Shown here: positions 14,221-46,686 of the stretch, piece by piece
Numbering within the stretch: position 1 is the stretch's first letter
Layout of the letters: each line of letters opens with the position of its first letter
NCBI GenBank assembly: GCA_020632995.1
Contig: JACKEN010000003.1
Coordinates: 372,677-436,676, forward strand
Origin: Deltaproteobacteria bacterium
Lineage (GTDB): Bacteria > Myxococcota > Kuafuiibacteriia > Kuafuiibacteriales > Kuafuiibacteriaceae
DNA length: 64,000 nt
Direction: 5' to 3'
The notes under the pieces: model-generated
The model's input: only the letters and a program-made list of their open reading frames with translations
What the model was told of the DNA's origin: nothing
The model's database searches: none
Program-made: the position numbers and the translations under genes

Positions 14221-14599
14221 CTCCTACGCCTTTGTCTCGCGGTTCTCAATGGTGGCGCTGCGGACCTACTTTTCCCTTCAGATGAACTGCCCGAGGCGGC
14301 GTCTCTACCGCCAATCCCGGGAGTCTTCAGGGTCCAAAGCAACCATCGTCAACCTTGGTTGCGATCGACGAGCGCCTCGGGCTGGGTGAGGTTGTAGATC
14401 CTCGACCTTGACCCACGTGTGCCAGCCGTTCTCGCCGTGAGCCTCGGCGAAAGCCGACTTGCATCGATGCCGCGCTTCGTGCTCGCGGGAGCAGGCGTGT
14501 GACCGGTCCCTGCCAGGACGCGTGAACCCGAGCCACCGAAACAGGTTCCCGTCGATTGCGGTCCGCGGCCGATCGCCGAGGTTCGGGCCGACCCCGTCA
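14221..14599. promoter_or_regulatory. Intergenic region upstream of the minus-strand giant operon, presumed promoter
   Basis: About 380 bp non-coding gap between convergent/divergent units; lower GC than flanks; no specific motif identified. Confidence 0.25.
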
Positions 14600-15661: not shown

Positions 15662-15815
15662 CGATGGATAATACAGACAGGTCTGTCTTTCTGCAACTGG
15701 ACATGTACGAGGCGCGATCGTCCTCGATCTGGGCCATCGAGCGGGGCAGGCCCGCGGTAGGGTCGGGCGCCTCGAGGTCTGTCTCGTGGGGAGGTCGGCG
15801 GCTAGTCTCGAGGAC

Positions 15816-16403: not shown

Positions 16404-16434
16404 CCCGTGAATCCGAGTCCCGGGTAGTGGTCCT

Positions 16435-30681: not shown

Positions 30682-30902
30682 GTTGTAGGACCTCCGGGGC
30701 GTGACCAAAAGCACGCCATGTACCGCCTCGGGATGCCTGGGAATTCCCGTGGTTTTGGGCTCCGCCGGTATCAGAAGTGCGGGGACGCGGCGGGGGCGCC
30801 CTCAGGAATCCGCGGCCCCCCGAACCCCGACACACCGCGTCATTCTCATGGGTTACGTGAGCTTTTCTAACAAAAAGGCCTTGCCTTCGGGACGCGAGGA
30901 CC

Positions 30903-30934: not shown

Positions 30935-31651
30935 ATGACGCCCGTGCCCGCCCAGCTCCGACAGAGCGCCCTGGATCACTACGAAGAGATGGCTCGGCTC
31001 GGGCAGGCCTTCGGCAGCCCGGTCCGGCTCCGATTGCTGGATCTCTTGCGGCAGGCGCCGCGCAGCGTGGACGCGCTGAGTGAAGAGGCGGGCCTGCCGG
31101 TGGCGAACGTGAGCCAGCACCTGCGTCAGCTCCGCGCCGCTCACGTGGTGAGCTCCGAGCGCCAAGGCCAGCGGGTGATCTACCGACTCTCCGGACCGAT
31201 GGTGGCGTCGTTCTTCCTCGCGTTCCGAACGTTCGGCGAGATGCTCCTTCCGGAGCTGGATCGGTTGAAGAAAGACATCCAATCCGCCGAGCGCGGTCTC
31301 GCGCCCGACGAGTTCCGCCAGTTGCTCGATCGCGGCAAGGCCCTCGTGGTGGATGTGCGTCCGAACGAGGAGTACCATCACGCTCACTTCGACGACGCAG
31401 TCTCCATCCCGCTAGAGGAGCTGCCCAGCCGACTGCACGAGCTACCGAGGAGCAAGGTGGTGGTGCCCACGTGTCGAGGCCCTTACTGCCCTCTGGCCAT
31501 CCAGGCCGTGAGCCTGCTCCGTGAGGCCGGCTTCGAGGCCGCCCACTTCGATCTCGATGAATTTAGCGAGGGCATCGGCGTAGAGACGCCGATGGTCCCG
31601 CGGTCGGCCCCGACCAAGAAGGCCGCGGCTCGAAAGAAGAGGAGTTCATGA
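30935..31651 (+). CDS. ArsR/SmtB-family HTH transcriptional regulator fused to a C-terminal rhodanese domain
   Basis: Winged-helix region RLRLLDLLRQAPRSVDALSEEAGLPVANVSQHLRQLRAAHVV; C-terminal rhodanese fold with Cys loop VVVPTCRGPYC; stop overlaps next ATG (ATGA). Confidence 0.8.
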   Translation: MTPVPAQLRQSALDHYEEMARLGQAFGSPVRLRLLDLLRQAPRSVDALSEEAGLPVANVSQHLRQLRAAHVVSSERQGQRVIYRLSGPMVASFFLAFRTFGEMLLPELDRLKKDIQSAERGLAPDEFRQLLDRGKALVVDVRPNEEYHHAHFDDAVSIPLEELPSRLHELPRSKVVVPTCRGPYCPLAIQAVSLLREAGFEAAHFDLDEFSEGIGVETPMVPRSAPTKKAAARKKRSS

Positions 31652-32589
31652 ACATGCGTTGGATGATTCTTGGTGCTGCGCTCCTGTGGAGCGCCACCGC
31701 GCAAGCTGCTGACGAGTACTTCGTCTCCGTGGACGAGGCGAAGGCCCAGGTGGGCAAGGCCCGTTTCATCTGGGCCGACAAGGAGAGCGACTTCGAGAAG
31801 GAGCACATCCCGGGCTCCGGCATCGCCTACGCCCACGATCTGTCGATCCTGAGCGACGTGAAGGCCTGCAAGGGCCTGCCGCTCTGCGAGCCGGCCGCGG
31901 CCAAGCTGATCGGCCAGGAGCTCGGCATCGACAACGACACCGACGTCATCGTCTACGACGGCGGCGCGGGGGCAAACGCGAGCGGGATCTGGTTCCTGCT
32001 CAAGCTGTACGGCCACGACAAGGTCAAGATCCTGGATGGCGGCCTCGCCACCTGGAAGGCCCACGGCGGCAAGGTGGAGTCGGGGCACGCGGCCAAGGTG
32101 GCGGCCAAGTCGTTCACCCCCAAGGTGCAGTGGGACATGATCGCCAACGTCGACGAGGTCAAGAAGGCGACCGGCGACCAGGGGCACTACCTCCTGGTGG
32201 ACGCGCGCCACAACCTCGACGAGTACACCGGCCGCACCCTGCAGGCGGCCATGGCGGCGCCGGGCAAGGAGGCCACCGTGGCGCGCGGCGGCTACATCCC
32301 CACCGCGGTCTTCTCGCCGTGGAGCAAGTACGCTGGCAACAAGGGCGGCAAGGCCGACCAGCCCACCTTGAAGGACCAGAAGGAGCTGCAGAAGCAGCTC
32401 AAGAAGCTGTCGAAGAACGGCTACGCGCCGGACAAGACCGTCATCAGCTACTGCCACGTGGGCCTCGGCCGCGGCTCGTTCCAGTACCTCGCCCTCAAGA
32501 AGGCCGGGCACAAGAACGTGAAGCTCTACATCGGTTCCTGGAACGAGTGGGGCAACGACCCCTCCCTGCCCCTGGGCACCCAGCCCTGA
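31648..32589 (+). CDS. Secreted tandem-rhodanese thiosulfate/3-mercaptopyruvate sulfurtransferase
   Basis: Signal peptide; two rhodanese domains; catalytic loop YCHVGLGRG. Confidence 0.8.
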   Translation: MNMRWMILGAALLWSATAQAADEYFVSVDEAKAQVGKARFIWADKESDFEKEHIPGSGIAYAHDLSILSDVKACKGLPLCEPAAAKLIGQELGIDNDTDVIVYDGGAGANASGIWFLLKLYGHDKVKILDGGLATWKAHGGKVESGHAAKVAAKSFTPKVQWDMIANVDEVKKATGDQGHYLLVDARHNLDEYTGRTLQAAMAAPGKEATVARGGYIPTAVFSPWSKYAGNKGGKADQPTLKDQKELQKQLKKLSKNGYAPDKTVISYCHVGLGRGSFQYLALKKAGHKNVKLYIGSWNEWGNDPSLPLGTQP

Positions 32590-32605: not shown

Positions 32606-33730
32606 ATGACGTCGCTTCTCACCGGTCTTCTCACTGGCATGGGGTTCGGCATCCTCCTCTACAAGGTGGGCGCCACCCGGTACTCGCGGATCATGGGGAT
32701 GCTGACCCTCCGCGATACCAAGATCATGAAGTTCGCTTTCACCACCATCGCGGTGGCCTCCATGTTGTATGGGTTGGCGAGCCTCGCGGGCATCGCCAGT
32801 GACTGGAACCTCGAGACGCGCGTCATGCCGTTCATGGGCGGCGCCCACATCCTGGGCGGCATCCTGTTCGGCGCGTCGCTCGGCGTGACCGGGCTCTGCC
32901 CGGGCACCTGCGCCGCCAAGGCGGGCGGGCGCGCGGGCGAGAAGCGCTTCGTGCTCCCCGCCGCCCTCATCGGGCTCGTCCTCGGCGTGGTCATGTACGC
33001 CTGGCTGAAGGAGCCGCTGGTGGACGCGGGCATCGTGGCGCGGCCGCGGCAACTCACCTTGCACGGCTACCTCGGCCTCCCCTACGGCGTGGTGGCGGTC
33101 GTCTTCGGCGCGGTCATCATGACCATCGTCCTCGTCGTGGATCGCTTCACCCCCGAGAAGCGCTACGAGCCGGTGAAGGAGCGCCACTCGATCGTCGACT
33201 GGGTGCGGGGCGAGTGGAGCTTCCTCGCCTCCGGCACCATCGCCGGCCTCTTGATCGTGGGCGCCACCGCGCAGGGCGGGTACCTCGGCTTCTCCGGCTC
33301 CCTCCTCGCGCTGGTGGGCGCGGTGTCCAACGTCATCGGGATCAAGATGGCGGCGGTGCCGGTGGTGAACGACAGCATCCTCTGGCACTCCGGCCTGATC
33401 GTGGGGGCGCTGGTGGGTGGCTTCCTCTCCAGCCTGGTGTCCACGTACTCGAAGGGCTACGTCGGGGTCCCGAAGAAGAAGACCCTCGATCCGAAGGCCA
33501 TCGCCATCACCATGTCCGGCACCGCGATCATGGCGCTGGGCGCGATGGTGGGCGGCGGGTGCACGACCGGGGCCTTCCTCTCCGGCTGGCCGACCCTCTC
33601 GATCGGGAGCTTCGCCATGGCGATCACGTTCTTCGCCACCTCGATGGCGGTCTCGAACCTCCGCCTCCTGGTCGCGCACACCTACGACCTCAACGCCGCC
33701 CAGAAGATCGGCGAGCAGGTCTATGACTGA
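32606..33730 (+). CDS. YeeE/YedE-family sulfur-compound (thiosulfate) transporter
   Basis: Duplicated multi-TM architecture with conserved Cys-containing loops (GLCPGTCAA, GGGCTTGAF). Confidence 0.8.
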   Translation: MTSLLTGLLTGMGFGILLYKVGATRYSRIMGMLTLRDTKIMKFAFTTIAVASMLYGLASLAGIASDWNLETRVMPFMGGAHILGGILFGASLGVTGLCPGTCAAKAGGRAGEKRFVLPAALIGLVLGVVMYAWLKEPLVDAGIVARPRQLTLHGYLGLPYGVVAVVFGAVIMTIVLVVDRFTPEKRYEPVKERHSIVDWVRGEWSFLASGTIAGLLIVGATAQGGYLGFSGSLLALVGAVSNVIGIKMAAVPVVNDSILWHSGLIVGALVGGFLSSLVSTYSKGYVGVPKKKTLDPKAIAITMSGTAIMALGAMVGGGCTTGAFLSGWPTLSIGSFAMAITFFATSMAVSNLRLLVAHTYDLNAAQKIGEQVYD

Positions 33731-33734
33731 GGCA

Positions 33735-33865
33735 TGGAGCTGATGATGAGTCGTCAACTGCGGGTCGCCGCAATCATCGCCGTCGTGGTCCTCGCGGTGT
33801 CCTGGATCATGCTCCGACAGCACAACGCACAGGTCGCCGCTCCGGCGGCGGAGGCGCAGCAATGA
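33735..33865 (+). CDS. Small (43 aa) single-TM protein, translationally coupled to downstream rhodanese
   Basis: ATG with hydrophobic core VAAIIAVVVLAVSWIML; stop overlaps next ATG (ATGA). Confidence 0.3.
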
Positions 33866-34326
33866 AGAAGTTCGAGCCCTTCATCTACATCGTCCTCTTC
33901 GTGGTGTTCGGGGGCCTCGTGCTCTCCGAGGGCGCGAAGGCCGCGGCGCTCGATCGGTCCATCGCGCTGACCCCGAAGGAGCTGTACCGCAAGATCGCGA
34001 AGCGGGAAGGTGCCTTGCAGATCGTCGACGTGCGCGAGGACGTCGAGGAGAACTACGAGGACACCCACATCCCCGGCGCCATCCCCTTCCCCAACTGCGA
34101 CATGAAGGAGACGCCGGAGGGTGCGCGCGACCAGGTGGAGCCGTCGGTGCCCACCATCATCGTGTCCGGCGATGGCGATCAGGAGCTGTTCAACAAGTGC
34201 GCGGCGTACTTCACCTCCGCGCGTAACCTGGAGGGTGGGCTCGAGGCCTGGGACGACGAGAACCTCCCCGAGGATAGCGGTGAGTACCAGCCCCCCAAGG
34301 TGGGCGCGGGCGGCGGATGTCTGTGA
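33862..34326 (+). CDS. Membrane-anchored single-domain rhodanese-like protein (active-site Cys not evident)
   Basis: N-terminal TM; rhodanese fold pattern LQIVDVRE...THIPGAIPFP...PTIIVSGDGD. Confidence 0.6.
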   Translation: MKKFEPFIYIVLFVVFGGLVLSEGAKAAALDRSIALTPKELYRKIAKREGALQIVDVREDVEENYEDTHIPGAIPFPNCDMKETPEGARDQVEPSVPTIIVSGDGDQELFNKCAAYFTSARNLEGGLEAWDDENLPEDSGEYQPPKVGAGGGCL

Positions 34327-34336
34327 GGCGAGTGCG

Positions 34337-37225
34337 ATGACCATCTCGAGACGCGACGTACTGAAGAACATGGCCGCGGTGAGCGCGGGGGCCGCCGCGG
34401 TCTCCGCCCTGGACGGGCGCGCCCTGGCCAAGGGGCTCCCCAAGCCGGAGCGGCGGGACGATCCCCGCCATCACCCGCCGGCCAAGGAGACGTCGGTCGA
34501 GGCCATGTATCGGGCCGAGTTCGCCGAGACCTTCGGCGACGCGGGCGAGAAGGGCTTCGCGTACCACTGCGTGAACTGCCAGGGGAACTGCGCCTGGCAG
34601 GTCTGGAGCAAGGACGGCAAGGTCACCCGCGAGAACCAGAGCGCGTCCTATCCGCAGATCGCGGACGACATCCCGGACGCGAACCCGCGCGGCTGCAACA
34701 AGGGCGTGCAGCACAGCCAGATCATGTACTCGCAGGACCGCCTGCTCTACCCGATGAAGCGGGTGGGCGAGCGCGGCGAGGGCAAGTGGGCCCGGATCAG
34801 CTGGGACGAGGCCATCTCCACGGTGGCCGAGAAGCTCTACGACACGATGCTCCGGGTGGGCCCGGAGGGGAACTACATCCACGTCGGCGCGGGGATCCTC
34901 ACCGAGGCCAGGGCCGCGTCGGTGAAGCGCCTCGGGGCGCTGTTGGGCGCGGTGCGTCCGTACATCGCCTCCTATGTCGGTGACATGTTCCCTGGCGTCT
35001 CGGTGGTGTACGGCGAGGGCAACATCGGTTGCACCTTCGACTTCATCTACAAGTCGAACGTCGCGGTGTTCTGGGGCTGCAACCCCAACACCTCGCGCAT
35101 CCCGGACGCCCACTACCTGTGGGAGGGCAAGTACAACGGCTGCAAGGTCGTGGTGATCACCCCAGAGTTCAACTCCACCGCGATCCACGCCGACCTGTGG
35201 GTGCCGGTGAAGCCGGGCGGCGACGGCCACCTGGCCATGGCCATCATGAACCGGATCGTGAAGCGGCGGCTCCACAACCCGAAGTTCCTGGCCACCTACA
35301 CCGACCTGCCGCTCCTGGTCCGCGAGGACAACGGCAAGCTCCTCACCCTCCACGACGTGGACGCCGAGGCCCTCGACTCGAAGCTAGTGGAGCTGTTCGG
35401 TGAGGACGAGGCGAAGCACCACGAGGTCTTCCTCGCCTGGGATCAGCGCACCAAGAAGGCGGTGCCGCTGCCCGGCTGCGAGGGGAGCGCGGTGCCGACG
35501 CTGCGCCTGAAGGACAACGCCTGGAACATCTCCCCCGCCCTGAAGGGCACCTACAAGGTGAAGCTCTCGGACGGGAGCATGGTCACCGTGAAGCCGGTGT
35601 ACGAGCGCTTCGAGCAGGAGCTGGCCGCGTTCGCGCCCGAGAAGGTGCAGGCGATCACCGGCGTCCACCCGAAGGTGGTGGACGAGCTGGCGGTCGACCT
35701 CGCCAAGTCGAAGACCGCGGTCATCACCCTCGGCTTCGCGGTGGGCAAGCACTTCAACGGCATGCTCTCGCAGCGCGCGATCTCGACCCTGGCCGCGCTG
35801 TCCGGGAAGCTCGGCCCCAACGGCGGCATCAACTCCGAGAACGAGTGGAACATCACCGGCCTCGGCGGCCTGAGCAGCTTCGATGGGCGCTTCGTGCACC
35901 GCTTCGCGTCCGGCTTCACCTCCGAGTTCATGCTCGGCGATGGCCTGAAGACCTACGACAAGGGCTTCGCGGACGAGGACGTGAGGCGCGCCACCGGGAT
36001 GTCCAAGTCGGACTACAAGTCCCGGGTGGAGCAGATGCTCACCAAGGGGAAGAACGACGACGGCTACAAGGACGGCGGCAAGCCGTACTGGACCACGGTC
36101 GAGACCTTCTTGATGTTCGCGGACTCCCGGTTCCGTCGGAACAAGGGTGAGTACAAGGAGGCCTTCCTCGAGAAGGCCAAGTTCATCGCCTACGGCGACA
36201 TCCGCATGAGCGACTTCGCGCAGTACGCGGACGTGCTCCTGCCCTGCAAGTCGCACTACGAGGTCTGGGACATCCGGACCAACCCCGGCTACCACCGCTT
36301 CGCGAACATCGCGTACCCGCCGCCCCACCTCGAGAACGTGGGTGAGGCGAAGAGCGAGTGGGAGATCTCGACCCTCATCGTGGAGAAGATGGAGGCCCTG
36401 GCCAAGGCGCGCTACGCCAAGACCAAGGACGAGAAGGACATCAAGATCCCGGACGAGACCCACACCCAGGAGGGCTTCCGGCCCATGGGTGAGCTCGTCA
36501 AGGAGTTCACCCAGGACGGGAAGGTGCGCACCGACCGCGAGGCGGTGGAGTACGCGCTCGAGCACGTCGACCAGTTCAAGCCGAACACCATCCAGACGGT
36601 GTACGACCGCGGCGGGTTCCTGCAGCTCAACGACAAGTCCGGCAAGTCGAGTCCGCTCTATGCGGACCGGCCCTACAACACGTTCGAGAGCCAGCTGTAC
36701 TTGTTCCAGCGCTTCGACACCGTCAGCGGGCGGCTCACGTTCTACGTGGACCACCCACTGTGGGTCGAGATGGGGGCGGCGATCGTCACCGCGCGGGAGC
36801 CCATCCGGCCGAAGAAGTACCCGCTGGCCCTAATGACCCCGCACGCGCGGTGGTCGATCCACTCGACGTACAAGACCTCGCCGACCCTGCTGCGTCTGCA
36901 GCGCGGCAAGCCGTACGTCATGATCAACCCCGAGGTGGCGGCGTCCCGCGGCATCGCGGACGGCGACGACGTCCGGATGTTCAACGACCTGGGCGACACC
37001 GTGTTGATGGCGAAGCTGGTGCCCGGCGTGCCGAAGAACGCGGTGGTGATGGAGCACGGCTGGGAGCCCTTCATGTTCCGCGGCCGCAAGGGGCAGAACG
37101 TCCTCGTGGGCGACATGCTCAACTTGCTTGAGCTCAGCGACGGGTGGGGACACCTGAAGTTCGGCACCAACTGGGACGGGAACCAGCACGCCTACGACGC
37201 CACCGTCGAGCTGGCGAAGGTCTGA
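34337..37225 (+). CDS. Tat-exported molybdopterin (Mo-bisPGD) oxidoreductase catalytic alpha subunit, type II (NarG/EbdA/SerA/DdhA-like)
   Basis: Twin-arginine signal MTISRRDVLKNMAAVSAGAAA; FS0 motif AYHCVNCQGNCAW...PRGCNKG aligns with NarG HGVNCTGSCSW...PRGCPRG (His-x3-Cys-x3-Cys); RLLYPMKR matches NarG RLKYPM; about 962 aa. Confidence 0.85.
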   Translation: MTISRRDVLKNMAAVSAGAAAVSALDGRALAKGLPKPERRDDPRHHPPAKETSVEAMYRAEFAETFGDAGEKGFAYHCVNCQGNCAWQVWSKDGKVTRENQSASYPQIADDIPDANPRGCNKGVQHSQIMYSQDRLLYPMKRVGERGEGKWARISWDEAISTVAEKLYDTMLRVGPEGNYIHVGAGILTEARAASVKRLGALLGAVRPYIASYVGDMFPGVSVVYGEGNIGCTFDFIYKSNVAVFWGCNPNTSRIPDAHYLWEGKYNGCKVVVITPEFNSTAIHADLWVPVKPGGDGHLAMAIMNRIVKRRLHNPKFLATYTDLPLLVREDNGKLLTLHDVDAEALDSKLVELFGEDEAKHHEVFLAWDQRTKKAVPLPGCEGSAVPTLRLKDNAWNISPALKGTYKVKLSDGSMVTVKPVYERFEQELAAFAPEKVQAITGVHPKVVDELAVDLAKSKTAVITLGFAVGKHFNGMLSQRAISTLAALSGKLGPNGGINSENEWNITGLGGLSSFDGRFVHRFASGFTSEFMLGDGLKTYDKGFADEDVRRATGMSKSDYKSRVEQMLTKGKNDDGYKDGGKPYWTTVETFLMFADSRFRRNKGEYKEAFLEKAKFIAYGDIRMSDFAQYADVLLPCKSHYEVWDIRTNPGYHRFANIAYPPPHLENVGEAKSEWEISTLIVEKMEALAKARYAKTKDEKDIKIPDETHTQEGFRPMGELVKEFTQDGKVRTDREAVEYALEHVDQFKPNTIQTVYDRGGFLQLNDKSGKSSPLYADRPYNTFESQLYLFQRFDTVSGRLTFYVDHPLWVEMGAAIVTAREPIRPKKYPLALMTPHARWSIHSTYKTSPTLLRLQRGKPYVMINPEVAASRGIADGDDVRMFNDLGDTVLMAKLVPGVPKNAVVMEHGWEPFMFRGRKGQNVLVGDMLNLLELSDGWGHLKFGTNWDGNQHAYDATVELAKV

Positions 37226-37238: not shown

Positions 37239-38288
37239 ATGTCGAAGCGTCAGCTCGCCATGGTCATGGACCTCAACAAGTGCATCGGCTGCCAGACGTG
37301 CACGGTGTCCTGCAAGACGCAGTGGACCAACCGCAACGGCCGGGAGTACATGTACTGGAACAACGTCGAGACGAAGCCCGGCGATGGCTACCCCAAGAAG
37401 TGGGAAGACATGGGCGGCGGGTTCGACGAGCGAGGTCAGCTGAGGGACGGCCACGTGCCCTCACGCTCCTCGGAGTACGGCACGCCCTGGGACTACAACC
37501 TGAACGAGCTCGACTCCGGGAAGCTCCTGGAGGCGCAGCAGAAGCTCCAGGTGGGGCCGAACTGGGACGAGGATCAGGGCAAGGGCGACTTCCCGAACTC
37601 GTACTACTTCTACCTCCCCCGCATCTGTAACCACTGCAGCAACCCGGGTTGCCTGGCCGCCTGCCCCCGCGGGGCGATCTTCAAGCGGGACCAGGACGGC
37701 ATCGTGCTCGTGGATCACGATCGCTGCGAGGGCCTGCGGTATTGCATTGCAGGTTGTCCTTACAAGAAGATCTACTTCAACCCGAAGCTCTTCAAGAGCG
37801 AGAAGTGCATCTTCTGCTTCCCTCGCATCGAGAAAGGGCTCCCGCCCGCGTGCGCCCACCAGTGCGTGGGGCGCATCCGCTTCGTGGGCTACCTCGACGA
37901 CGAGGAGAGCCAGGTCTACAAGCTGGTGCACAAGTACAAGGTCGCGCTGCCGCTCCACGCCGAGTACGGCACCGTGCCCAACGTCTTCTACGTGCCGCCG
38001 CTCCCCGGGCCCCCGAAGTACGACGCGTTCGGCAAGCCCGTGGCGGGCAGCGAGCGCATCCCGCTCGAGTACCTCGAGAGCCTGTTCGGGCCCGACACCA
38101 AGGCCTCCCTCGCGGTGCTCGAGAAGGAGATGGCGAAGCGCAAGGCCGGCAAGACGTCGGAGCTGATGGACATCCTCATCGCCTACAAGCACTCCGACAT
38201 GTTCCGCATCGACGCCCCGAAGCCCACCGCCAGCGTGGGCACCGATCTCATCCAGATCGGCAAGAAGGCAGAGAGGAGCCCGGCGTGA
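37239..38288 (+). CDS. NarH-like iron-sulfur beta subunit of type II molybdoenzyme
   Basis: Block-by-block similarity to NarH: LNKCIGCQTCTVSCK, YWNNVETKPGDGYP, GPNWDEDQG, YLPRICNHCSNPGCLAACP, GIVLVDHDRCEGLRYCIAGCPYKKIYFN, SEKCIFCFPRIE, CVGRIRFVG, VALPLHAEYGTVPNVFYVPPLP. Confidence 0.9.
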   Translation: MSKRQLAMVMDLNKCIGCQTCTVSCKTQWTNRNGREYMYWNNVETKPGDGYPKKWEDMGGGFDERGQLRDGHVPSRSSEYGTPWDYNLNELDSGKLLEAQQKLQVGPNWDEDQGKGDFPNSYYFYLPRICNHCSNPGCLAACPRGAIFKRDQDGIVLVDHDRCEGLRYCIAGCPYKKIYFNPKLFKSEKCIFCFPRIEKGLPPACAHQCVGRIRFVGYLDDEESQVYKLVHKYKVALPLHAEYGTVPNVFYVPPLPGPPKYDAFGKPVAGSERIPLEYLESLFGPDTKASLAVLEKEMAKRKAGKTSELMDILIAYKHSDMFRIDAPKPTASVGTDLIQIGKKAERSPA

Positions 38289-39487
38289 AGGCGCGGCTGA
38301 TGATGGGCGCCGTCCTCGGCGCCGCGATGCTCATGGGCGGGAGCGCCCGGGCCGACGACGCCTACCTTAAGGCGGAGGCGGTGACGGTGACCCGCACCCA
38401 GAAGGTGCCGAAGGATCCGCGGGACGCGGCGTGGGCCAAGGCCCCGGCGGCCCGGGTGATGCTGGGCGCTCAGCGGACGGTGCGCCTCAACGATCGGGAC
38501 GCCAACCCGCACCGGGACGACGCCCAGAAGTTCGCCGAGGTGCAGGCCTACAGCGACGGCAAGACGCTGGCGATGCGGGTCTCGTGGGTCGATCCCACCG
38601 AGGACCGGGCGCTCTACGACGAGACCTCGGTGTTCGGCGACGCGGTGGCGATGGAGATGCCGGCCGCCTTCGGGGCGGAGCACCGCCTGCCCTACGTCGG
38701 CATGGGCGACCCCGACGAGAACGTGGTGGTGTCGATGATCCGCGCCACCACCAGCTACCAGGGCGCGCCGATGTCGCGGCCGCGGACCACGGTGGCGGCG
38801 GGCTTCGGCTCCCTCACCCGGGCCCCGCTGCCGTGGATGGACATGGTCATGTACTACGACCGCAAGCTGCCTGGCTGGCGGGCCACCTTCGTGCGGCCGG
38901 TGACCACCCCCGAGCACGACATCGCGCGCCCCCTGGTGCCGTTCGCGCTCGCGGTTTGGGACGGGGCCGAGAAGCAGCGCGGCGGCAACAAGTCGCTGTC
39001 CCGCTGGAAGGTGCTGCACGACGCCCAGGCCAAGGCGGAGCCCGCGTACCTCGAGAAGCTGGCCTACGGGTACGGCGCGCAGGCCACCGGTGATGCGGCC
39101 AAGGGCAAGGCGCTCGCCACCGCGGTGTGCATCGCCTGCCACCGCTTCGCGGAGTACCAGGTGGCGCCGCCCGAGCTCGCGCCGGAGCTGACCAACGTCG
39201 GCGTCATCACCAACCCGACGTATCTGCGCGACTCCATCAAGGAGCCGAGCCAGATCATCGTGCCGGTGCTGAACCTCAACCGCCACTACTCCAAGTCGAA
39301 GGAGCGGGACCGGTACGGCGCCTACCAGAACGACGACACCTACCAGTGGTTCTCCATCGACGCCGCGGGCAAGCGGGTGTCCCGCATGCCGAGCTTCGCG
39401 GGCTTCAGCCCCGAGCAGATCGCGGATCTGGTGGCGTTCCTGCAGACCCTCGGTACCCAGCCTGCCCCGAAGAAGGAAGGTCAGTGA
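38285..39487 (+). CDS. Gamma subunit: EbdC/SerC-type heme-b domain fused to a C-terminal cytochrome c domain
   Basis: GTG start overlapping beta stop (GTGA); signal peptide; N-terminal about 250 aa of type-II heme-b-subunit size; C-terminal CIACH (CxxCH) with downstream Met-rich cytochrome c-like region. Confidence 0.7.
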   Translation: MKARLMMGAVLGAAMLMGGSARADDAYLKAEAVTVTRTQKVPKDPRDAAWAKAPAARVMLGAQRTVRLNDRDANPHRDDAQKFAEVQAYSDGKTLAMRVSWVDPTEDRALYDETSVFGDAVAMEMPAAFGAEHRLPYVGMGDPDENVVVSMIRATTSYQGAPMSRPRTTVAAGFGSLTRAPLPWMDMVMYYDRKLPGWRATFVRPVTTPEHDIARPLVPFALAVWDGAEKQRGGNKSLSRWKVLHDAQAKAEPAYLEKLAYGYGAQATGDAAKGKALATAVCIACHRFAEYQVAPPELAPELTNVGVITNPTYLRDSIKEPSQIIVPVLNLNRHYSKSKERDRYGAYQNDDTYQWFSIDAAGKRVSRMPSFAGFSPEQIADLVAFLQTLGTQPAPKKEGQ

Positions 39488-39488: not shown

Positions 39489-39899
39489 ATGAAGCGCAGC
39501 GTGTTGATGCTCGGTGTGTTGAGCGCCGCTCTCTGGGCGGCCCCCGCCTCGGCCCAGGAGAAGGGCGACGACGTGGAGGTGACCTCCGGCTCGGTGACCG
39601 GGCTCTCCTGCGCCCTCGAGGCCCAGAAGACCGGCCACCTGGAGCTGCTGGCCGCGTGCCCGCTCCAGGAGGCGGTGAAGGAGATCGTGATCTTCGACGT
39701 GGCGGAGCGCGCGATCTATCGGCTCCAGGGCGTCACGGTGGCCATGTACGAGCTCGAGATGGCCTACGGCGGCGGCTCCATCGACATGGAGGGCGTCGTC
39801 ACCAAGGTCGACAAGAAGACCGGCGTGGCCACGGTGAAGGTGGCAGAGTACTCCATCACCAAGAAGCCGAAGGCGGGCGGGTTCAAGGGCTGCCTGTGA
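39489..39899 (+). CDS. Small periplasmic protein of unknown function in molybdoenzyme operon
   Basis: Signal peptide MKRSVLMLGVLSAALWAAPASA; 136 aa; stop overlaps next GTG start. Confidence 0.5.
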   Translation: MKRSVLMLGVLSAALWAAPASAQEKGDDVEVTSGSVTGLSCALEAQKTGHLELLAACPLQEAVKEIVIFDVAERAIYRLQGVTVAMYELEMAYGGGSIDMEGVVTKVDKKTGVATVKVAEYSITKKPKAGGFKGCL

Positions 39900-40789
39900 A
39901 GGACCTGATCCAGATCGGCGCCGGGGTGCAGGCGGGCAAGCCCGACCTCCGCTTCGGCACCAGCGCCGCCCCCAACGATCGCGCCGGCTTCGCTCGCGCG
40001 GTGGTGGCGGTGACGTCTGGAAAGGGCGGGGTGGGCAAGTCCACCGTGGCGGTCAACCTGGCGGTGGGCTGCGCGCAACGCGGCTTGCGGGTGGGCCTGT
40101 TGGACGCGGACGTCTACGGGCCCAGCGTGCCCCGCATGCTGTCGCTCCACGGCGAGCGCCTCGAGTGGAGCGACGACGACAAGATGATCCCGGCCGAGAA
40201 CTTCGGGGTCAAGCTCGTGAGCACCGCCCTCACCACCCCCGAGCTCGACACGCCGCTCGCGTGGCGCTCCTCGGTGGCCACCAGCGCGCTGGTGCAGCTC
40301 ATCGAGGACGTGGACTGGGGTGAGCTCGACATCCTCTTCGTCGACATGCCGCCGGGCACCGGCGACGTGCAGATCACCGTGGTCCAGGAGGTGAAGCTCA
40401 CCTACGCGGTGGTGGTCACGACCCCGCAGACGGTGGCCACCGACGACGTGGCGCGGGCGATCCGCATGCTGGCCGACGTGGGTGTGCCCGCCGGCCTGGT
40501 CGAGAACATGAGCTTCTTTCGGGCCCCGGACACCGGGGCCATCTACCATCCCTTTGGCGAGGGCGGCGGTCGAGGCCTGGCGGAGCGCTATCAGCTGCCG
40601 CTGCTGGGCACCCTGGCCCTGGCACCTTCGGTCATGACGCGGGCAGACGAAGGTCTGCCTGCGGTGGCCGGTGGCGCGCCCGAGGACCAGGCGCCGTGGC
40701 AGGCGCTGGTCGATCACCTCCTCAAGCAACCTTCTCTGCTCGAGCGGCTCCCACCGGGGACCGCAACAACCCATCAGGAGAACATATGA
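39896..40789 (+). CDS. apbC: Mrp/NBP35/ApbC-family Fe-S cluster carrier ATPase
   Basis: Walker A SGKGGVGKST; conserved CxxC-type region and Mrp signature blocks; GTG start overlapping upstream stop; stop overlaps cytochrome c ATG. Confidence 0.8.
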   Translation: MKDLIQIGAGVQAGKPDLRFGTSAAPNDRAGFARAVVAVTSGKGGVGKSTVAVNLAVGCAQRGLRVGLLDADVYGPSVPRMLSLHGERLEWSDDDKMIPAENFGVKLVSTALTTPELDTPLAWRSSVATSALVQLIEDVDWGELDILFVDMPPGTGDVQITVVQEVKLTYAVVVTTPQTVATDDVARAIRMLADVGVPAGLVENMSFFRAPDTGAIYHPFGEGGGRGLAERYQLPLLGTLALAPSVMTRADEGLPAVAGGAPEDQAPWQALVDHLLKQPSLLERLPPGTATTHQENI

Positions 40790-41166
40790 AGAAGACCATC
40801 CTTATCGTGCTCGGAGCCCTCTTTGTCGCCAACGCCGCCGTGGCCGCCCCCAAGGCCAAGGCGCCCAAACCCACCAAGGAGCTGCTCGAGAAGGGCAAGG
40901 CCACCTTCACCGTGAACTGCGTGGCCTGCCACGGCGAGAAGGGCGACGGGACGGGCCCCGCGGCGGTGGCGCTCGACCCCAAGCCGCGAAACTTCTCGAC
41001 CGACCAGTTCAAGAACGGGGACAAGCCCGACCAGGTGTTCAAGACGATCTCCGAGGGGCTCGCGGGGACGCCGATGGTGGCGTATGGTCACCTCTCCGAG
41101 GAGGAGCGGTGGGGGCTGGTGTACTACGTCCTCGAGTTCCACAAGAAGGCCGGCAAGAAGAAGTAG
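40786..41166 (+). CDS. Monoheme class I cytochrome c
   Basis: Signal peptide; CVACH heme-binding motif; distal Met (GTPMVAYG). Confidence 0.75.
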   Translation: MKKTILIVLGALFVANAAVAAPKAKAPKPTKELLEKGKATFTVNCVACHGEKGDGTGPAAVALDPKPRNFSTDQFKNGDKPDQVFKTISEGLAGTPMVAYGHLSEEERWGLVYYVLEFHKKAGKKK

Positions 41167-41211: not shown

Positions 41212-41847
41212 ATGAGGCTTGGATTTCTCGTGGACCTGGACCTCTGCATGGGCTGCAAGGCCTGTGAGGTCGCGTGCAAGGCGGAGAACAACGTGCCCGT
41301 CGGGGCGTGGCGCTTGCGCGTGAAGTATGTGGACACCGGGACCTATCCCGACGCCAAGCGCGCATTCACACCCATGCGCTGCAACCAGTGTGACAACGCC
41401 CCCTGCGAGCGGGCCTGCCCGGTGGGGGCGTTGCACTACCTCGACAACGGCATCGTCGACGTCGACAAGGACCGTTGCATCGGCTGCGCCGCGTGCATGA
41501 TGGCTTGCCCATACGGCGCCCTCTACATGGACCCCGAGACCAACACCGCCGACAAGTGCACCTTCTGCGCGCACCGGGTCGAGGGCGGCCTCGAGCCGGC
41601 CTGTGTGGTCGCCTGCCCGGTGGAGGCGAACATCTTCGGTGACCTGGACGATCCGCGCAGCAGGATCAGCCAGTACATCATGGCCCACAACGACTCGCGG
41701 GTGAGGAAGCCCGAGAAGGGCACCGTGCCGAAGCACTACTACACCGGTGGCGGCGCGGTGCACCTCGACCCCCTGGCCTCACGCCGGGAGCCGGGCTTCA
41801 ACCTCTTCAACCGCATCGGCACGCTGGACAAGATCGGGGGGCACTAG
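41212..41847 (+). CDS. 4x[4Fe-4S] ferredoxin subunit (TtrB/PsrB/NrfC-like)
   Basis: Four Cys clusters (CMGCKACEVAC, CNQCDNAPCERACP, CIGCAACMMACP, CTFCAHRVEGGLEPACVVACP). Confidence 0.8.
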   Translation: MRLGFLVDLDLCMGCKACEVACKAENNVPVGAWRLRVKYVDTGTYPDAKRAFTPMRCNQCDNAPCERACPVGALHYLDNGIVDVDKDRCIGCAACMMACPYGALYMDPETNTADKCTFCAHRVEGGLEPACVVACPVEANIFGDLDDPRSRISQYIMAHNDSRVRKPEKGTVPKHYYTGGGAVHLDPLASRREPGFNLFNRIGTLDKIGGH

Positions 41848-42711
41848 ATGAACTCTGCTGTCGTCACCCTGGACGTCCTGCACTCCGGAGTCATCTGGGG
41901 CTGGTACGTCACCATGAACTTCTGGGCCAAGAGCATCGCCACCGGCGTGATCCTCCTGGCGCCCTGGCTCCTGAAGCGCTCCGAGAACCCGCAGCTGCGC
42001 TTCCTCACCGCGGGGGTGGGCTTCGTCTTCTTGAACATCACACTGCTGTTCACCGTGTTGGACCTGCACCAGCCCTTCAGGTTCTGGCACATGTTCGTGC
42101 ACCCGCACTTCACGAGCGTCATCAACATCGGGGCGTGGATCCTCACCGCCCTGAACGGCCTGTTGGTGCTCCACCTGTTCATGGCGTGGCGCAAGCGCGA
42201 CGCGCTCTACGACAAGCTCCTGCCGGTGACCTGGTTCGTGGCCTTCCTCGCCACGATCTACACCGCGGGCCTGCTCGGGCAGGCGAACGCGCGTGAGATC
42301 TGGCAGGCGCCGGCCGAGGTGGCCCAGATGATCCTGGCCGCCACCCTCTCGGGCAGCGCGGTGTTCCTGCTCATCGGGGGCGGCGACGCAGAGATCAAGC
42401 GGCACCTCGGCACCGTCCTCGGGGTCTCCGCCCTCGTGGCGCTGAGCATCTTCCTCGCGGAGATCTTCCTCGCCCCCCAGAAGTCCGAGGAGGCCGAGTA
42501 CCTGATCCACATCCTGGTCTCGGGTCAGCTCAGCGGGCTGTTCCTGGGCGGTCTGGTGGTGGGCTTCGTGGCGCCGGCGGTGCTCGCCTATGTCGGGGTT
42601 CGCAAGAACCAGGCAGGGCTCCTTGCGCTGGCCAGCGTGATGGGCCTGGTCGGCCTGTGGCTGGTGAAGCACGCGTGGCTCATCGCGCCCCAGCTCATCC
42701 CCCTCAGCTGA
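41848..42711 (+). CDS. NrfD/PsrC-family integral membrane quinol-interacting anchor (TtrC-like)
   Basis: Eight predicted TM helices; NrfD-like pattern; ATG one base after the B-subunit stop. Confidence 0.8.
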   Translation: MNSAVVTLDVLHSGVIWGWYVTMNFWAKSIATGVILLAPWLLKRSENPQLRFLTAGVGFVFLNITLLFTVLDLHQPFRFWHMFVHPHFTSVINIGAWILTALNGLLVLHLFMAWRKRDALYDKLLPVTWFVAFLATIYTAGLLGQANAREIWQAPAEVAQMILAATLSGSAVFLLIGGGDAEIKRHLGTVLGVSALVALSIFLAEIFLAPQKSEEAEYLIHILVSGQLSGLFLGGLVVGFVAPAVLAYVGVRKNQAGLLALASVMGLVGLWLVKHAWLIAPQLIPLS

Positions 42712-42730
42712 GAATCGGTCGGAGCATAAC

Positions 42731-45700
42731 ATGGCGACCCATCGACGAACCTTCCTCAAGGCAGCCACCATCTCCACCGGCGCCGCAGCGGCGCTGGTGG
42801 GCTCGATCCGGTCCTTCATCCCCAAGGCCCGGGCCGGTGAGTCCGTGGCGACCAAGTACGACAAGCTCCCCGTGGTGAACGGGAACCTGGAGCGCTACCC
42901 GCCGTTCGAGAAGTGGAACGGTTGGCGCGAGATGGACGGTGACGACTGGAAGCGTGGCGGCATCCTGCGCCACGACGTGAAGGTCAACGACTACATGTTG
43001 GTCCCGACCGTCTGCAACAACTGCGAGGCGGTGTGCGGCCTGACCGCGTGGGTCGACAAGGAGACCCTCACCGTCCGGAAGTACATGGGCAACCCGCTCC
43101 ACACCGGGAGCCAGGGTCGCAACTGCGCCAAGGGCTACGCGGTGCTCACGCAGATGTACGATCCCGACCGGATCCCGTTCCCGCTCAAGCGGGCCCCCGG
43201 GACCAAGCGCGGCGACGGCAAGTGGGTGCGCACCACCTGGGACGAGGCCATGGCCACCATCGGTGGCAAGATGCGCGAGGCCCTCTCCAAGGGCGATGAG
43301 TTCACCAAGAAGTCCATCATGCACCACGTGGGCCGGCCCAACGAGTCCGGGTTCACGCCGCGGGTGTGGGCGAGCCTGGGGCAGGACTTCCAGAACAGCC
43401 ACACCAACATCTGCTCCGCGAGCGGGCGCTTCGGGAGCCTGTTGTGGGCGAACGACGACCGCAGCTCCTCGGACTGGTCCAACGCGCGGCTGATCTTCCT
43501 GATCTCCTCCCACGCGGCGGACGCGGGCCACTACTTCCAGCAGTCGGCGCGGCAGATCGCCGAGGCGCGCAAGAAGGGCGCCAAGCTGGTGGTGCTCGAC
43601 CCGCGCCTGTCCAACTCCGCCGGCATGGCGGATCTGTGGATCCCGTGCTGGCCCGGGAGCGAGGCGGCAATCCAGCTTGCCATCGCTGGGCGGCTGATCA
43701 AGGAGCGCCGCTACAACCGTGAGTTCGTCCGCCGGTGGTGGAACTGGCAGGACTTCATGGCGTCCAAGGACACCCACCAGCTCCTCCTCGAGCAGGGCTT
43801 CATCACCAAGCTGCCCGCGGGTGAGGGCTTCGAGGCCTTCGAGGCCTTCATGGAGGACATGTACGGCGCCTACACCCTCGAGTGGGCGGCGGAGCAGGCG
43901 CGGGTCCCGCTCTCCAAGCTCGAGACGCTGTACGAGTACTTCCTGTACGCGGGCGACCGCGTGGCGAGCTTCCACTGGCGGGCGACCGCGGCGGGGAACC
44001 GGGGCGGCTGGATGTCGTCGTCCCGCACCGGCATCTTCCTGATCAGCCTCCTCGGTAACTACAGCGGCGTCGGCGCGCTGGGCTACCACCACGGGCGCGA
44101 GATCGCGGTGGCGGGAAAGGGCGGCAAGAGCACGGTGGGCGAGAAGCCGCCGAAGGTGGACGAGTGGAACGACCTGTCGTGGCCGCCGGAGTGGCCGCTC
44201 GCCTCTTATGAGCTGAGCTTCCTGTTGCCGCACCTGTTGACCGACACCGACTGGCAGCAGAAGTGGCGCGACAAGGGGCTCACCGTGCCCTCCAAGATCC
44301 CGGTGTACTTCCCGCGGATGTACAACCCGGTGTGGATCAACCCGGACGGCTTCCGGTGGATCGAGGTGCTGCGGGACGAGTCCAAGATCGAGCTCGCGAT
44401 CAACCCGTCGCCGATCTGGTCCGAGACCAACTGGTTCATGGACTACATCCTCCCCACCGGCCTGTCGGGGGAGCGGCACGACCAGCACTCCGAGCCCACC
44501 AACACCGAGGCCTGGGTGGCGTTCCGTCAACCTGTCTTGCGCGCGGCGCTCGAGAAGATGGGCTGGGAGCCCAAGGACCCGGCGCGGGCCACGTTGGAGG
44601 CCCACATGAAGGCGGGCCTGGGTGAGATCTGGGAGGAGAACGAGTTCTTCATCAACCTCCTGTTCCACCACGTGGATCCGGACGGCGCCCTCGGGATCCG
44701 GCAGTACTGGGAGAGCCGGGCCCGCCCCGGCAACCCGGTGACGATCGCCGAGTACTATGACGCCGCCTTCGGCACTCTGCCCGGCCTGACCAAGGCCGCG
44801 AAGGAGGCCGCGGCCAAGAAGGCGAAGGACGCCAAGACGCCGGAGGAGAAGAAGCTCGCGGCGTTCGCGGCCCAGCACCCCTGCTACGACATGATGCGGG
44901 ACCGGGGCGCCTGGACCGAGCACGTCGACGTCTTCAACCAGTACGAGGAGGAGCTCGAGGTCGACGAGGCCCGCGGCGTGGTGAAGACGAAGGCGATGGA
45001 CGTCTTCGGCGGCGCCGTCGAGTACCCGATCAAGAGCGTCAAGACGGACCCGAAGACCCAGCAGCTCTACGTCGAGACGCCCGAGGGGCGCCACAACGTC
45101 GGCGTGGTGGGCGAGCGCGGGGGCTGGGAGGTCGGCTTCCCCACCCCGAGCCGCAAGATGGACTTCTTCGCCGGCTGGATGAAGGACTGGGGTTGGCCGG
45201 AGTACACCATCCCGATCTACCCGCGCACCAAGGCCCAGATGGACAAGATGATCCACCTGGTCTCCCACGTGCACCATCAGTACATGACGGAGGAGAACGC
45301 GTTCGCCCTGAACCCGATCTTCCGCCTCTCGTACAACATCCACACCCGCGGCGTGAACTCGAAGTGGCTGCAGGAGATCAGCCAGAACCACGCGCCCCTG
45401 TGGATCAGCATGCAAGACGCCCGGCGGATGGGCCTCGGTCGCGGTGACCCGGTCAAGGTGCGGGTGGTCGACACGCTCTCCGGCAAGGAGTCGGGCTACT
45501 TCGTGGCCATGGCGATGCCCACCGAGGGCATGGCGCCCGGGGTGCTGTCCTGCAGCCACCACGCCGGCCGGTGGCGCGTGGTGGACAAGGTCGACATCTC
45601 GGGCTTCGAGCAGCCGCTCCACATCATGCGGGCCGGCAGCCCGCAGGCGGAGCTGAAGGAGGAGGGCTCGACGCAACGCAGCCTGCGCTACACGAAGGGC

Positions 45701-46081
45701 ATCGAGGCCTTCCTCCCCACGCCCACCAAGGAGTTCGGCGACAAGGGCTGGCCCTTCGCCGCGGTCAACCAGGACCTCGACAACATCAGCTGGGACGGCC
45801 TGAGCGGGGTCTGGCAGAACGCCACGCACCACCCGCACCCGGATCCGATCTCCGGCATGCACTGCTGGCACCAGAAGGTGCTGCTCGAGAAGGCGGGGCC
45901 GGGCGACCGGATCGGCGACCTCAAGGTCGACATCTCGGCCACCTACGCCACCTACCAGGCCTGGCGTGACGAGCTCACCCGGCCGGCGCCGGGGCCGGGC
46001 GGCCTGCGCCGACCCGAGCACCTGAAGCGCCCGTGGGTCGCGATCACCCGCGACGCCTACAAGATGAAGACCAAGGCGTGA
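42731..46081 (+). CDS. Tat-exported molybdopterin oxidoreductase catalytic subunit, TtrA/SrdA-like (gene order B-C-A)
   Basis: Twin-arginine signal MATHRRTFLKAATISTGAAAA; 4Fe-4S motif CNNCEAVCGL...GRNCAKGY (Cx2Cx3C...C); about 1116 aa; B-C-A order matches ttrBCA/srdBCA-type operons. Confidence 0.8.
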   Translation: MATHRRTFLKAATISTGAAAALVGSIRSFIPKARAGESVATKYDKLPVVNGNLERYPPFEKWNGWREMDGDDWKRGGILRHDVKVNDYMLVPTVCNNCEAVCGLTAWVDKETLTVRKYMGNPLHTGSQGRNCAKGYAVLTQMYDPDRIPFPLKRAPGTKRGDGKWVRTTWDEAMATIGGKMREALSKGDEFTKKSIMHHVGRPNESGFTPRVWASLGQDFQNSHTNICSASGRFGSLLWANDDRSSSDWSNARLIFLISSHAADAGHYFQQSARQIAEARKKGAKLVVLDPRLSNSAGMADLWIPCWPGSEAAIQLAIAGRLIKERRYNREFVRRWWNWQDFMASKDTHQLLLEQGFITKLPAGEGFEAFEAFMEDMYGAYTLEWAAEQARVPLSKLETLYEYFLYAGDRVASFHWRATAAGNRGGWMSSSRTGIFLISLLGNYSGVGALGYHHGREIAVAGKGGKSTVGEKPPKVDEWNDLSWPPEWPLASYELSFLLPHLLTDTDWQQKWRDKGLTVPSKIPVYFPRMYNPVWINPDGFRWIEVLRDESKIELAINPSPIWSETNWFMDYILPTGLSGERHDQHSEPTNTEAWVAFRQPVLRAALEKMGWEPKDPARATLEAHMKAGLGEIWEENEFFINLLFHHVDPDGALGIRQYWESRARPGNPVTIAEYYDAAFGTLPGLTKAAKEAAAKKAKDAKTPEEKKLAAFAAQHPCYDMMRDRGAWTEHVDVFNQYEEELEVDEARGVVKTKAMDVFGGAVEYPIKSVKTDPKTQQLYVETPEGRHNVGVVGERGGWEVGFPTPSRKMDFFAGWMKDWGWPEYTIPIYPRTKAQMDKMIHLVSHVHHQYMTEENAFALNPIFRLSYNIHTRGVNSKWLQEISQNHAPLWISMQDARRMGLGRGDPVKVRVVDTLSGKESGYFVAMAMPTEGMAPGVLSCSHHAGRWRVVDKVDISGFEQPLHIMRAGSPQAELKEEGSTQRSLRYTKGIEAFLPTPTKEFGDKGWPFAAVNQDLDNISWDGLSGVWQNATHHPHPDPISGMHCWHQKVLLEKAGPGDRIGDLKVDISATYATYQAWRDELTRPAPGPGGLRRPEHLKRPWVAITRDAYKMKTKA

Positions 46082-46686
46082 TGGAGGCCCAGGGGCGCGC
46101 CAACCTCTACGGCTTCTTCTCCCGGCTGTTCATCCGGGAGCTCGACGACGAGGCGGTGGCGCTGTTGGCGGGGCCGCTCGGGCAAGATCTCTTGCCCGAG
46201 GCCACCGCGGCGGGGGACGTGGCGCTGGCCGCCGACCCCGCCCGTCGGCACGCGGTGCTGGACCCCGACTACACCCACATCACGGTGGTGAACGTGGTGC
46301 CCTACGCCTCGTTCTACCTGCGCGACGACGCCATGGTGGAGGGCGGCACGGCGAACCCGGCGGCGGAGTTCCTGAAGGAGTACGGCTTCGAGGTGGATCT
46401 GGTGGCGGCGCGCTCGCTCGCGCCCGACCACATCGGGATCCTGCTCGAGAGCATGGCGGTGCTCGCCAACGCCGAGGCGGAGGCCGAGGCGCGTCCGGAC
46501 CCTGCCTACGCGGCCCGGATCCGGCAGGTGCAGCGCACGTTTCTGCAGGACCACCTGCTCTCCTGGGCGCCCGTCTACCTGTACGCGGTGGAGCGCTGCG
46601 CGCACAGCACCCTCTACCGCGAGGCGGCCAGCGTGCTGATGGACTTCCTCGGGAGCGACGCCCAGGACCTGGAGGCAGAGGCGTGA
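46081..46686 (+). CDS. TorD/DmsD/NarJ-family molybdoenzyme maturation chaperone
   Basis: Size and helical pattern of REMP chaperones (LYGFFSRLFIRELD...); start overlaps TtrA-like stop. Confidence 0.65.
   Translation: MEAQGRANLYGFFSRLFIRELDDEAVALLAGPLGQDLLPEATAAGDVALAADPARRHAVLDPDYTHITVVNVVPYASFYLRDDAMVEGGTANPAAEFLKEYGFEVDLVAARSLAPDHIGILLESMAVLANAEAEAEARPDPAYAARIRQVQRTFLQDHLLSWAPVYLYAVERCAHSTLYREAASVLMDFLGSDAQDLEAEA

Follow-up and report, generated by a model that had tools for sequence, protein, structure and literature searches.

In the periplasmic molybdoenzymes of type II, the gamma subunits EbdC, DdhC, SerC, ClrC and the Kuenenia NxrC are of one design. They are soluble periplasmic proteins with a Sec-type signal, are encoded after the alpha and beta subunits, and hold heme b in a beta-sandwich domain through a Met/Lys pair. 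They end after this heme-b domain and hand over to a cytochrome c that is a separate protein. The gene addressed here lies at positions 38285-39487 on the + strand of a 64,000-nucleotide stretch of contig JACKEN010000003.1 from a Deltaproteobacteria bacterium (the whole stretch is hereafter the window). Its product resembles them in its predicted Sec-type signal, its beta-sandwich domain with a predicted Met/Lys ligand pair and the position of its gene. It is 19-20% identical to EbdC and NxrC in structural alignment and differs in the addition of a C-terminal cytochrome c domain of about 130 amino acids (aa).

Several described systems approach this architecture. An ‘alternative NxrC’ of Nitrospina gracilis combines a heme-b domain with one to three heme-c sites (Lucker et al. 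2013, PMC3578206). These proteins, which are likened to the present one by their description, are known from the genome only; they are encoded away from nxrAB, vary in heme number and in some cases carry transmembrane helices, whereas the gamma of the window is encoded in an operon and belongs to a different enzyme clade. The cytochrome Kustd1711, a product of the Kuenenia nxr cluster, is a His/Met diheme protein with a potential of about +350 mV, and its Met292 was shown crystallographically to be a distal heme ligand (PMC11791136). Its His/Met ligation and the position of its distal Met match those predicted for the c domain of the window, and its gene is next to those of a type II enzyme whose gamma is of the EB_dh type. 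It is, however, a separate three-domain protein with two hemes and calcium-tuned potentials, and only one of its heme domains aligns well. ClrABC and PcrAB(C) are the closest annotated or solved relatives on the side of the alpha subunit, with which they share the Asp ligand to molybdenum and the His/Cys3 motif of the iron-sulfur (Fe-S) cluster FS0. PcrC is a c-type protein with several hemes and is not known to have an EB_dh domain. An earlier note on this DNA had stated that characterised gammas are about 200-250 aa long and bind heme b only, which is broadly right, although perchlorate reductase also uses a heme-c gamma, as a separate protein (PMC8840923), and the Kuenenia NxrC has 322 aa.

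The gene very probably encodes a true gamma subunit, conserved among its relatives, of a type II molybdoenzyme of the periplasm, to whose heme-b domain a monoheme cytochrome c domain has been added at the C-terminal end. The open reading frame encodes 400 aa in one uninterrupted frame, from a GTG start at 38285 to a stop at 39485-39487, and the GTG shares 4 nt with the stop codon of the beta gene. Its parts are as follows.

38285..39487, + strand: gamma subunit gene, encoding a signal peptide, a heme-b (EB_dh) domain and a cytochrome c domain (from the reading frame, Pfam, NCBIfam and alignment)
38285..38353, + strand: predicted Sec signal peptide, MKARLMMGAVLGAAMLMGGSARA and then DD (by inspection: positive n-region, hydrophobic core, A-x-A site)
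38387..39019, + strand: EB_dh / type II gamma heme-b domain, residues about 35-245 (TIGR03477, Pfam EB_dh, profile matches, Foldseek)
38702..38704, + strand: Met140, predicted axial heme-b ligand; invariant, aligned with EbdC Met108 and NxrC Met155
38990..38992, + strand: Lys236, predicted second axial heme-b ligand; invariant, aligned with EbdC Lys201 and NxrC Lys305
39089..39460, + strand: class-I cytochrome c domain, residues about 269-392 (Pfam Cytochrom_C; nearest solved relative Kustd1711, 7zs0)
39128..39142, + strand: CIACH heme-c attachment motif, residues 282-286 with Cys282, Cys285 and His286 (read from the sequence)
39386..39388, + strand: Met368 in S-R-M-P, predicted distal heme-c ligand; invariant, at the position of Kustd1711 Met292

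Domain models recover both halves, as the earlier note had proposed from the single frame without an intervening stop. Pfam EB_dh (PF09459) matches with an E-value of 1.8e-11 and 45 bits against a cutoff of 33.3, spanning residues 48-127 only, while the NCBIfam model for type II heme-b subunits, TIGR03477, covers residues 35-242. The latter scores 89.8 bits, under its curated cutoff of 169.85, so the heme-b domain is, by its sequence, a complete but divergent family member. Pfam Cytochrom_C (PF00034) covers residues 271-389 (E 3.9e-10; 41.3 bits, the cutoff being 21.3). The c domain has the marks of a class I cytochrome: it matches cytochrome c models and combines the CxxCH motif with a predicted distal Met. 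A profile of the gamma alignment matches many solved class I cytochromes. The same domain had been described as Met-rich, which does not hold, because Met368 is its sole Met.

The predicted ligands were followed in an alignment (A1) of 39 gamma homologues, whose identity to the protein of the window ranges from 35 to 80%. All six residues (Met140, Lys236, Cys282, Cys285, His286 and Met368) are invariant in 39/39 sequences. The residues of NxrC that align with the first two, Met155 and Lys305, are crystallographic heme-b ligands, ‘as in EBDH’ (PMC8387239; PMC8840923). The alignment segment that places Met368 at Met292 of Kustd1711 scores weakly. Against solved structures, the gamma profile finds NxrC (7b04_C, E 3e-18) and EbdC (2ivf_C, E 2e-16); for the c domain, the nearest protein of solved structure is Kustd1711 (7zs0, E 2.5e-13). 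A structure predicted with AlphaFold2 (AF2) gives the whole chain as two domains, with a mean predicted local distance difference test (pLDDT) of 86 and a predicted template modelling score (pTM) of 0.86; over residues 1-20 the pLDDT is low. The top Foldseek matches of this model are 7b04_C and 2ivf_C, both with E 3.8e-10 and probability 1.00, and the likeness of the N-terminal 250 residues or so to EbdC-type heme-b subunits is thus borne out by profile and by fold. Because these scores extend over the whole chain, the model suggests that the heme-b and c domains pack in a fixed, defined way. In the linker between them, Trp241 and Gly269 are invariant and Gly262 nearly so (alignment A1). The conserved ligands suggest that both sites are occupied by heme, and the two hemes may be in contact. 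Met/Lys heme b has proved to be high-potential in every case measured, with +256 mV in ethylbenzene dehydrogenase (EbDH) and +324 mV in dimethyl sulfide (DMS) dehydrogenase (PMC8840923); by homology with these enzymes and with Kustd1711, the hemes of the gamma subunit would be of high-potential character.

The fusion is neither private to this contig nor rare. The identical protein (P0001) occurs as 4 member sequences on 4 contigs, the sources of which include a 670,959-bp contig of a metagenome-assembled genome at NCBI and two separate Logan run assemblies. A word-indexed search at the level of 90%-identity clusters returned 149 matches. With few exceptions, the best 120 of them measure about 380-400 aa and have both Pfam domains, and the full-length clusters with this architecture number more than 120. 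When 1.84 billion representatives were searched exhaustively with HMMER, the result was 359 clusters (50% identity) with E up to 1e-3, and among the best 150 of the 359 representatives, 89 are fusion-like, with at least 340 aa and a CxxCH motif. A scan of one genome per species yielded 61 loci, mostly from Myxococcota (including Anaeromyxobacteraceae) and Aquificota (Persephonella, Hydrogenothermaceae). One locus each bears the label Bdellovibrionales, Planctomycetota, Elusimicrobia or Nitrospirae, and two bear the label Pseudomonadota. In all 61 of these loci the gamma gene stands directly after alpha and beta on the same strand. A search of plasmids with the gamma sequence returned unfused haloarchaeal EB_dh proteins only.

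When the N-terminal domain alone is used as the query, the c domain is present in the full-length representatives that score more than 80 bits, among them one (P0140) that has lost the CxxCH motif. Above the same score, the sequences without or nearly without a c domain are only short and probably truncated ones (286, 330 and 300 aa), and full-length unfused gammas appear at 62 bits or less. This division between fused close relatives and distant unfused ones points to one old fusion as the origin of the clade's architecture. An EB_dh domain also occurs with heme-c sites in other arrangements. Three proteins of about 520 aa (P0238, P0255, P0258) carry two CxxCH motifs N-terminal to the EB_dh domain, that is, in reverse order, and one locus (L068) encodes an orphan EB_dh and cytochrome c fusion (P0162) with no molybdoenzyme genes nearby.

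The two genes upstream of gamma encode the remainder of the enzyme.

34337..37225, + strand: alpha, catalytic subunit of the type II DMSO (dimethyl sulfoxide) reductase family, exported by twin-arginine translocation (Tat) and carrying a molybdenum bis(pyranopterin guanine dinucleotide) cofactor (Mo-bisPGD) (TIGR03479, PcrA/EbdA matches, motifs)
37239..38288, + strand: beta subunit with four Fe-S clusters (TIGR03478, 516.8 bits, above the cutoff of 480.7)

The alpha subunit carries the twin-arginine motif SRRDVLK and the FS0 motif H-x3-C-x3-C (HCVNCQGNC), and its Asp217 aligns with Asp170 of PcrA, a ligand to molybdenum. It scores 781 bits with TIGR03479, under the cutoff of 985, and falls under the curated cutoffs of all specific NCBIfam models. 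Among solved relatives, PcrA matches with 401 bits and EbdA with 326 bits; the gate residues of PcrA, F164 and Y165, are not conserved and correspond to I211 and A212. In comparisons with PDB, NCBIfam and plasmids (tblastn), identity is 31-35% and about equal to ClrA (33.5%), PcrA and archaeal NarG. Orthology to a characterised enzyme was not found in a comparison that covered EbdABC, PcrAB, ClrABC, NarGH and NxrABC, the EbdA equivalog scoring 352 bits against 2000 and NarG 221 against 1084. The assignment of a substrate from alpha homology was rejected, since identity is this low and about even among ClrA, PcrA and archaeal NarG. From the low identity, the scores below cutoff and the lost gate residues it follows that the enzyme belongs, by sequence, to a distinct and divergent clade of type II enzymes.

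Placed in the alpha-beta-gamma operon of a Tat-exported type II enzyme, the c domain is most naturally read as a built-in cytochrome c. The earlier note had gone on to propose direct wiring of the enzyme to the periplasmic c-type pool; the fusion, the conserved ligands and the operon support the reading in part, and the path of the electrons is inferred from homology. The position of the fusion makes topological sense, because gamma looks Sec-exported and alpha and beta pre-folded by way of Tat. Alpha and beta would cross the membrane folded and gamma would cross it unfolded by the general secretory (Sec) route, which would leave gamma as the one subunit open to covalent attachment of heme c in the periplasm. 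By homology with EbDH and nitrite oxidoreductase (NXR), electrons would run between Mo-bisPGD, FS0, the clusters FS1-FS4 in beta, heme b (Met140/Lys236) and heme c (His286/Met368). From heme c onward, the partner may be the soluble monoheme cytochrome c encoded at 40786-41166 or a terminal oxidase. The fusion also lends weak ‘Rosetta-stone’ support to a contact between NxrC and a Kustd1711-type cytochrome.

The genes that accompany the enzyme bear on its substrate. Their conservation was assessed by tblastn of the window proteins against fetched loci, with wider context taken from related genomes. In order along the window, those upstream of alpha are as follows.

30935..31651, + strand: ArsR-type helix-turn-helix regulator fused to a rhodanese domain (domain search, synteny)
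31648..32589, + strand: secreted double-domain rhodanese with the active-site loop CHVGLGR (domain search, synteny)
32606..33730, + strand: YeeE/YedE-type (Sulf_transp) membrane transporter (domain search, conserved synteny)
33735..33865, + strand: conserved 43-aa single-helix reading frame, MELMMSRQLRVAAIIAVVVLAVSW..., between the YeeE and rhodanese genes (tblastn, gene calls)
33862..34326, + strand: membrane-anchored rhodanese-fold protein ending in ...GGGCL (Pfam Rhodanese)

Immediately downstream of gamma stand three more genes.

39489..39899, + strand: small secreted protein ending in ...FKGCL, a candidate swinging-arm carrier (invariant tail, synteny)
39896..40789, + strand: Mrp/NUBPL-type P-loop Fe-S carrier ATPase, with an approximate start codon (Pfam ParA, E 5.9e-82; gene calls of identical contigs)
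40786..41166, + strand: secreted monoheme cytochrome c (CVACH), a candidate shuttle (Pfam); the third gene downstream of gamma

A near-invariant core consists of the double rhodanese, the YeeE transporter, the rhodanese ending in GGCL, alpha, beta, the gamma-cytochrome c fusion and the FKGCL protein, and is found in both Myxococcota and Aquificota (L001, L004-L062). The ArsR-rhodanese regulator, which heads the cluster in the window, precedes the core in many Myxococcota loci and may act as a sensor of sulfane sulfur or related species. The stop of the 43-aa reading frame, whose one helix is hydrophobic, overlaps the start of the rhodanese gene; tblastn finds relatives in 15 further distinct loci, and counterparts of 41-47 aa are called as genes in Persephonella and in myxobacterial loci. 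The Mrp/NUBPL ATPase, which in the window stands between the FKGCL protein and the cytochrome c, occurs in either orientation in many Myxococcota loci and is missing from those of Aquificota. At 25948-30714 on the - strand, shortly before the cluster, lies the gene of a very large secreted protein of 1588 aa, which looks like an alpha-2-macroglobulin-type protein in sequence appearance and is probably unrelated to the cluster.

Two members of this core end in Cys-Leu. The small FKGCL protein is 130-160 aa long across loci and its gene is always next after gamma; the C-terminus FKGCL is invariant in 59/59 homologues, and Cys41 and Cys57 are invariant too. Its AF2 model is a small OB-like beta-barrel with a flexible tail, the pLDDT being 57 in the tail and about 90 in the core. 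There is no Pfam and no meaningful NCBIfam match, and no significant fold match to SoxY, SoxZ, DsrC or other PDB entries, the best Foldseek hits being OB-fold domains at E 0.096. Membership in the SoxY/SoxZ/DsrC families was therefore rejected, as neither fold nor sequence family matches. The anchored rhodanese ends in GGCL in 51/51 homologues, and by inspection the usual position of the catalytic Cys appears to be Ser (IIVSGDGD).

Sulfur biology offers a familiar counterpart to such tails. SoxY, which ends in GGCGG, and DsrC, which ends in GCV, serve as carrier arms. The SoxCD system with SoxYZ likewise joins a periplasmic molybdoenzyme to a cytochrome c, and SoxY and DsrC carry their Cys near the end of a flexible, Gly-rich C-terminal tail, as do the GGCL and FKGCL proteins here. 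SoxC, however, belongs to the sulfite-oxidase family and the alpha of the window to the DMSO-reductase family, and the fold of the small FKGCL protein differs from that of SoxY and DsrC. The resemblance of a flexible tail with penultimate Cys to these swinging-arm carriers is where a carrier role would have its origin, as inference only. This context, which resembles that of a sulfur carrier and was overlooked in the earlier note, is more unusual than the fusion itself.

Further downstream, the loci differ. The secreted cytochrome c had been placed two genes downstream of gamma, which is off by one; two genes stand between, and it is the third. Its identity is 51% to a cytochrome c whose gene, in one related locus (L066), is situated between the cluster and genes of a caa3 oxidase. 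In 16 Anaeromyxobacteraceae-type loci (e.g. L066 at 11675-16633, L009, L016-L022, L024, L027), genes for a monoheme cytochrome c and a caa3 oxidase come after the cluster on the same strand, and the oxidase operon encodes COX2 fused to cytochrome c, COX1, COX3 and COX4. In the window, no caa3 operon is present near the cluster, which is instead followed by a second molybdoenzyme.

41212..47762, + strand: second molybdoenzyme module, Psr/Ttr-like (domain searches), composed of the next five genes
41212-41847, + strand: Fe-S subunit
41848-42711, + strand: NrfD-type membrane subunit
42731-46081, + strand: Tat-exported molybdenum subunit, unusually large at 1116 aa
about 46033-46686, + strand: NarJ-like chaperone
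46683-47762, + strand: 359-aa Fe-S protein

This module adjoins the core in the window and in those Aquificota loci that reach far enough downstream, and not in other Myxococcota loci.

Either direction of electron flow is possible in principle. On balance, the enzyme is probably a dehydrogenase that passes electrons out to the cytochrome c pool. Outward flow is favoured because of the cytochrome c and caa3 oxidase in the 16 loci, the window cytochrome that is 51% identical to one of theirs, and the sulfur-trafficking partners in the core. For most sulfur couples, the potential is too low for a reduction with electrons taken from the c pool. The substrate would be a sulfur or, with less likelihood, a selenium species, and its handling would fall to the rhodaneses, the YeeE transporter and the two proteins with penultimate Cys. 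Several observations weigh against this picture. Alpha and gamma both score under their curated NCBIfam cutoffs, which marks a divergent clade, and the annotated proteins nearest to alpha, PcrA and (with about 34% identity) ClrA, are reductases. Additionally, the oxidase linkage is confined to one lineage, in which COX1 is 76-84% identical, so that it counts as roughly one evolutionary event, and the window and the Aquificota loci carry the Psr/Ttr-like module beside the core in place of an oxidase.

The alternative that survives best keeps the fusion and reverses the flow. It is possible, though doubtful, that the enzyme serves respiration by reducing a high-potential oxyanion, as the selenate, chlorate and perchlorate reductases do, with heme c as the point of entry for electrons from the c pool or bc1. 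The rhodaneses, the YeeE/YedE transporter and the second, Psr/Srr-like enzyme would then deal with what the reaction yields, such as selenite, Se(0) or selenide. Links to the handling of selenium have been described for YedE-family proteins and for rhodaneses. The best-scoring characterised relatives of alpha, PcrA and ClrA, speak for such a reductase; high-potential hemes fit high-potential acceptors, and the adjoining Fe-S, NrfD and molybdenum module with its NarJ-like chaperone is like the reductases of the Psr/Ttr type. SerABC and ClrABC, moreover, draw their electrons from soluble cytochromes c (PMC3578206). The same alpha relatives, however, are too distant for orthology (31-35% identity), and the PcrA gate is replaced by I211/A212. 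No chlorite dismutase is in the cluster, the operon is tied to a caa3 oxidase in 16 loci, and the invariant core holds two Cys-tailed proteins that no known oxyanion reductase needs.

Far less likely is the idea that gamma is a free two-heme carrier, or that one of its domains is a heme-less scaffold. Orphan EB_dh and cytochrome c proteins do exist, such as the one in L068, the Nitrospina alternative NxrC proteins were proposed to be soluble carriers (PMC3578206), and the full-length relative without CxxCH would suit a heme-less domain. In the clade, however, gamma is always directly after beta, with the 4-nt overlap of the two genes in the window, its N-terminal domain has as homologues the subunits which, in the structures of EbDH and NXR, are docked on FS4 of beta, and all six heme-ligating residues are invariant in the 39 sequences. 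The possibility that the long reading frame is a frameshift or assembly artefact, which joins the gamma gene to a separate cytochrome c gene, is practically nil, being refuted by the identical protein on 4 contigs, the many homologues of the same architecture, the 61 genomes across phyla and the invariant Trp241 and Gly269 of the linker.

Returning to the dehydrogenase, a more specific version can be offered tentatively. The alpha-beta-gamma enzyme may act on sulfur or selenium species while they are tethered to the penultimate Cys of a swinging arm, the electrons passing through heme b and heme c to cytochrome c and the caa3 oxidase. The gamma-cytochrome c fusion would then be where electrons leave a periplasmic pathway that has not been described before. 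The arm would be the small FKGCL protein or the GGCL rhodanese; it would be loaded by the secreted rhodanese and linked to the cytoplasm by the YeeE-type transporter.

Regarding novelty, the fusion is real, widespread and sensible, and it is not surprising to a specialist, being already visible in databases, where the fusion proteins are labelled ‘type II enzyme heme b subunit’ (JGI) or ‘c-type cytochrome’ (NCBI). Literature searches for the clade, the fusion or the gene cluster found no description, the sole precedent being the remark on the Nitrospina alternative NxrC (PMC3578206). The carrier-arm context is the more novel possibility.

In periplasmic type II molybdoenzymes, including EbDH, NXR and the reductases of selenate and chlorate, the redox partner that serves in the cell is in most cases deduced indirectly. 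A natural fusion fixes the cytochrome c partner in the polypeptide and indicates which type of cytochrome docks, here a relative of the Kustd1711 encoded in the anammox nxr cluster. The clade is present in at least 61 species-level genomes, in two distant phyla, always in the company of rhodaneses, a YeeE-type transporter and two Cys-Leu-tailed proteins. Because of this constant company, it represents a testable candidate for an unrecognised step of sulfur or selenium cycling in soils and sediments (Anaeromyxobacteraceae) and at hydrothermal vents (Persephonella, Hydrogenothermaceae). If the action on a tethered substrate is true, the system would be a third solution to the oxidation of carrier-bound sulfur beside Sox and Dsr, common to Myxococcota and Aquificota.

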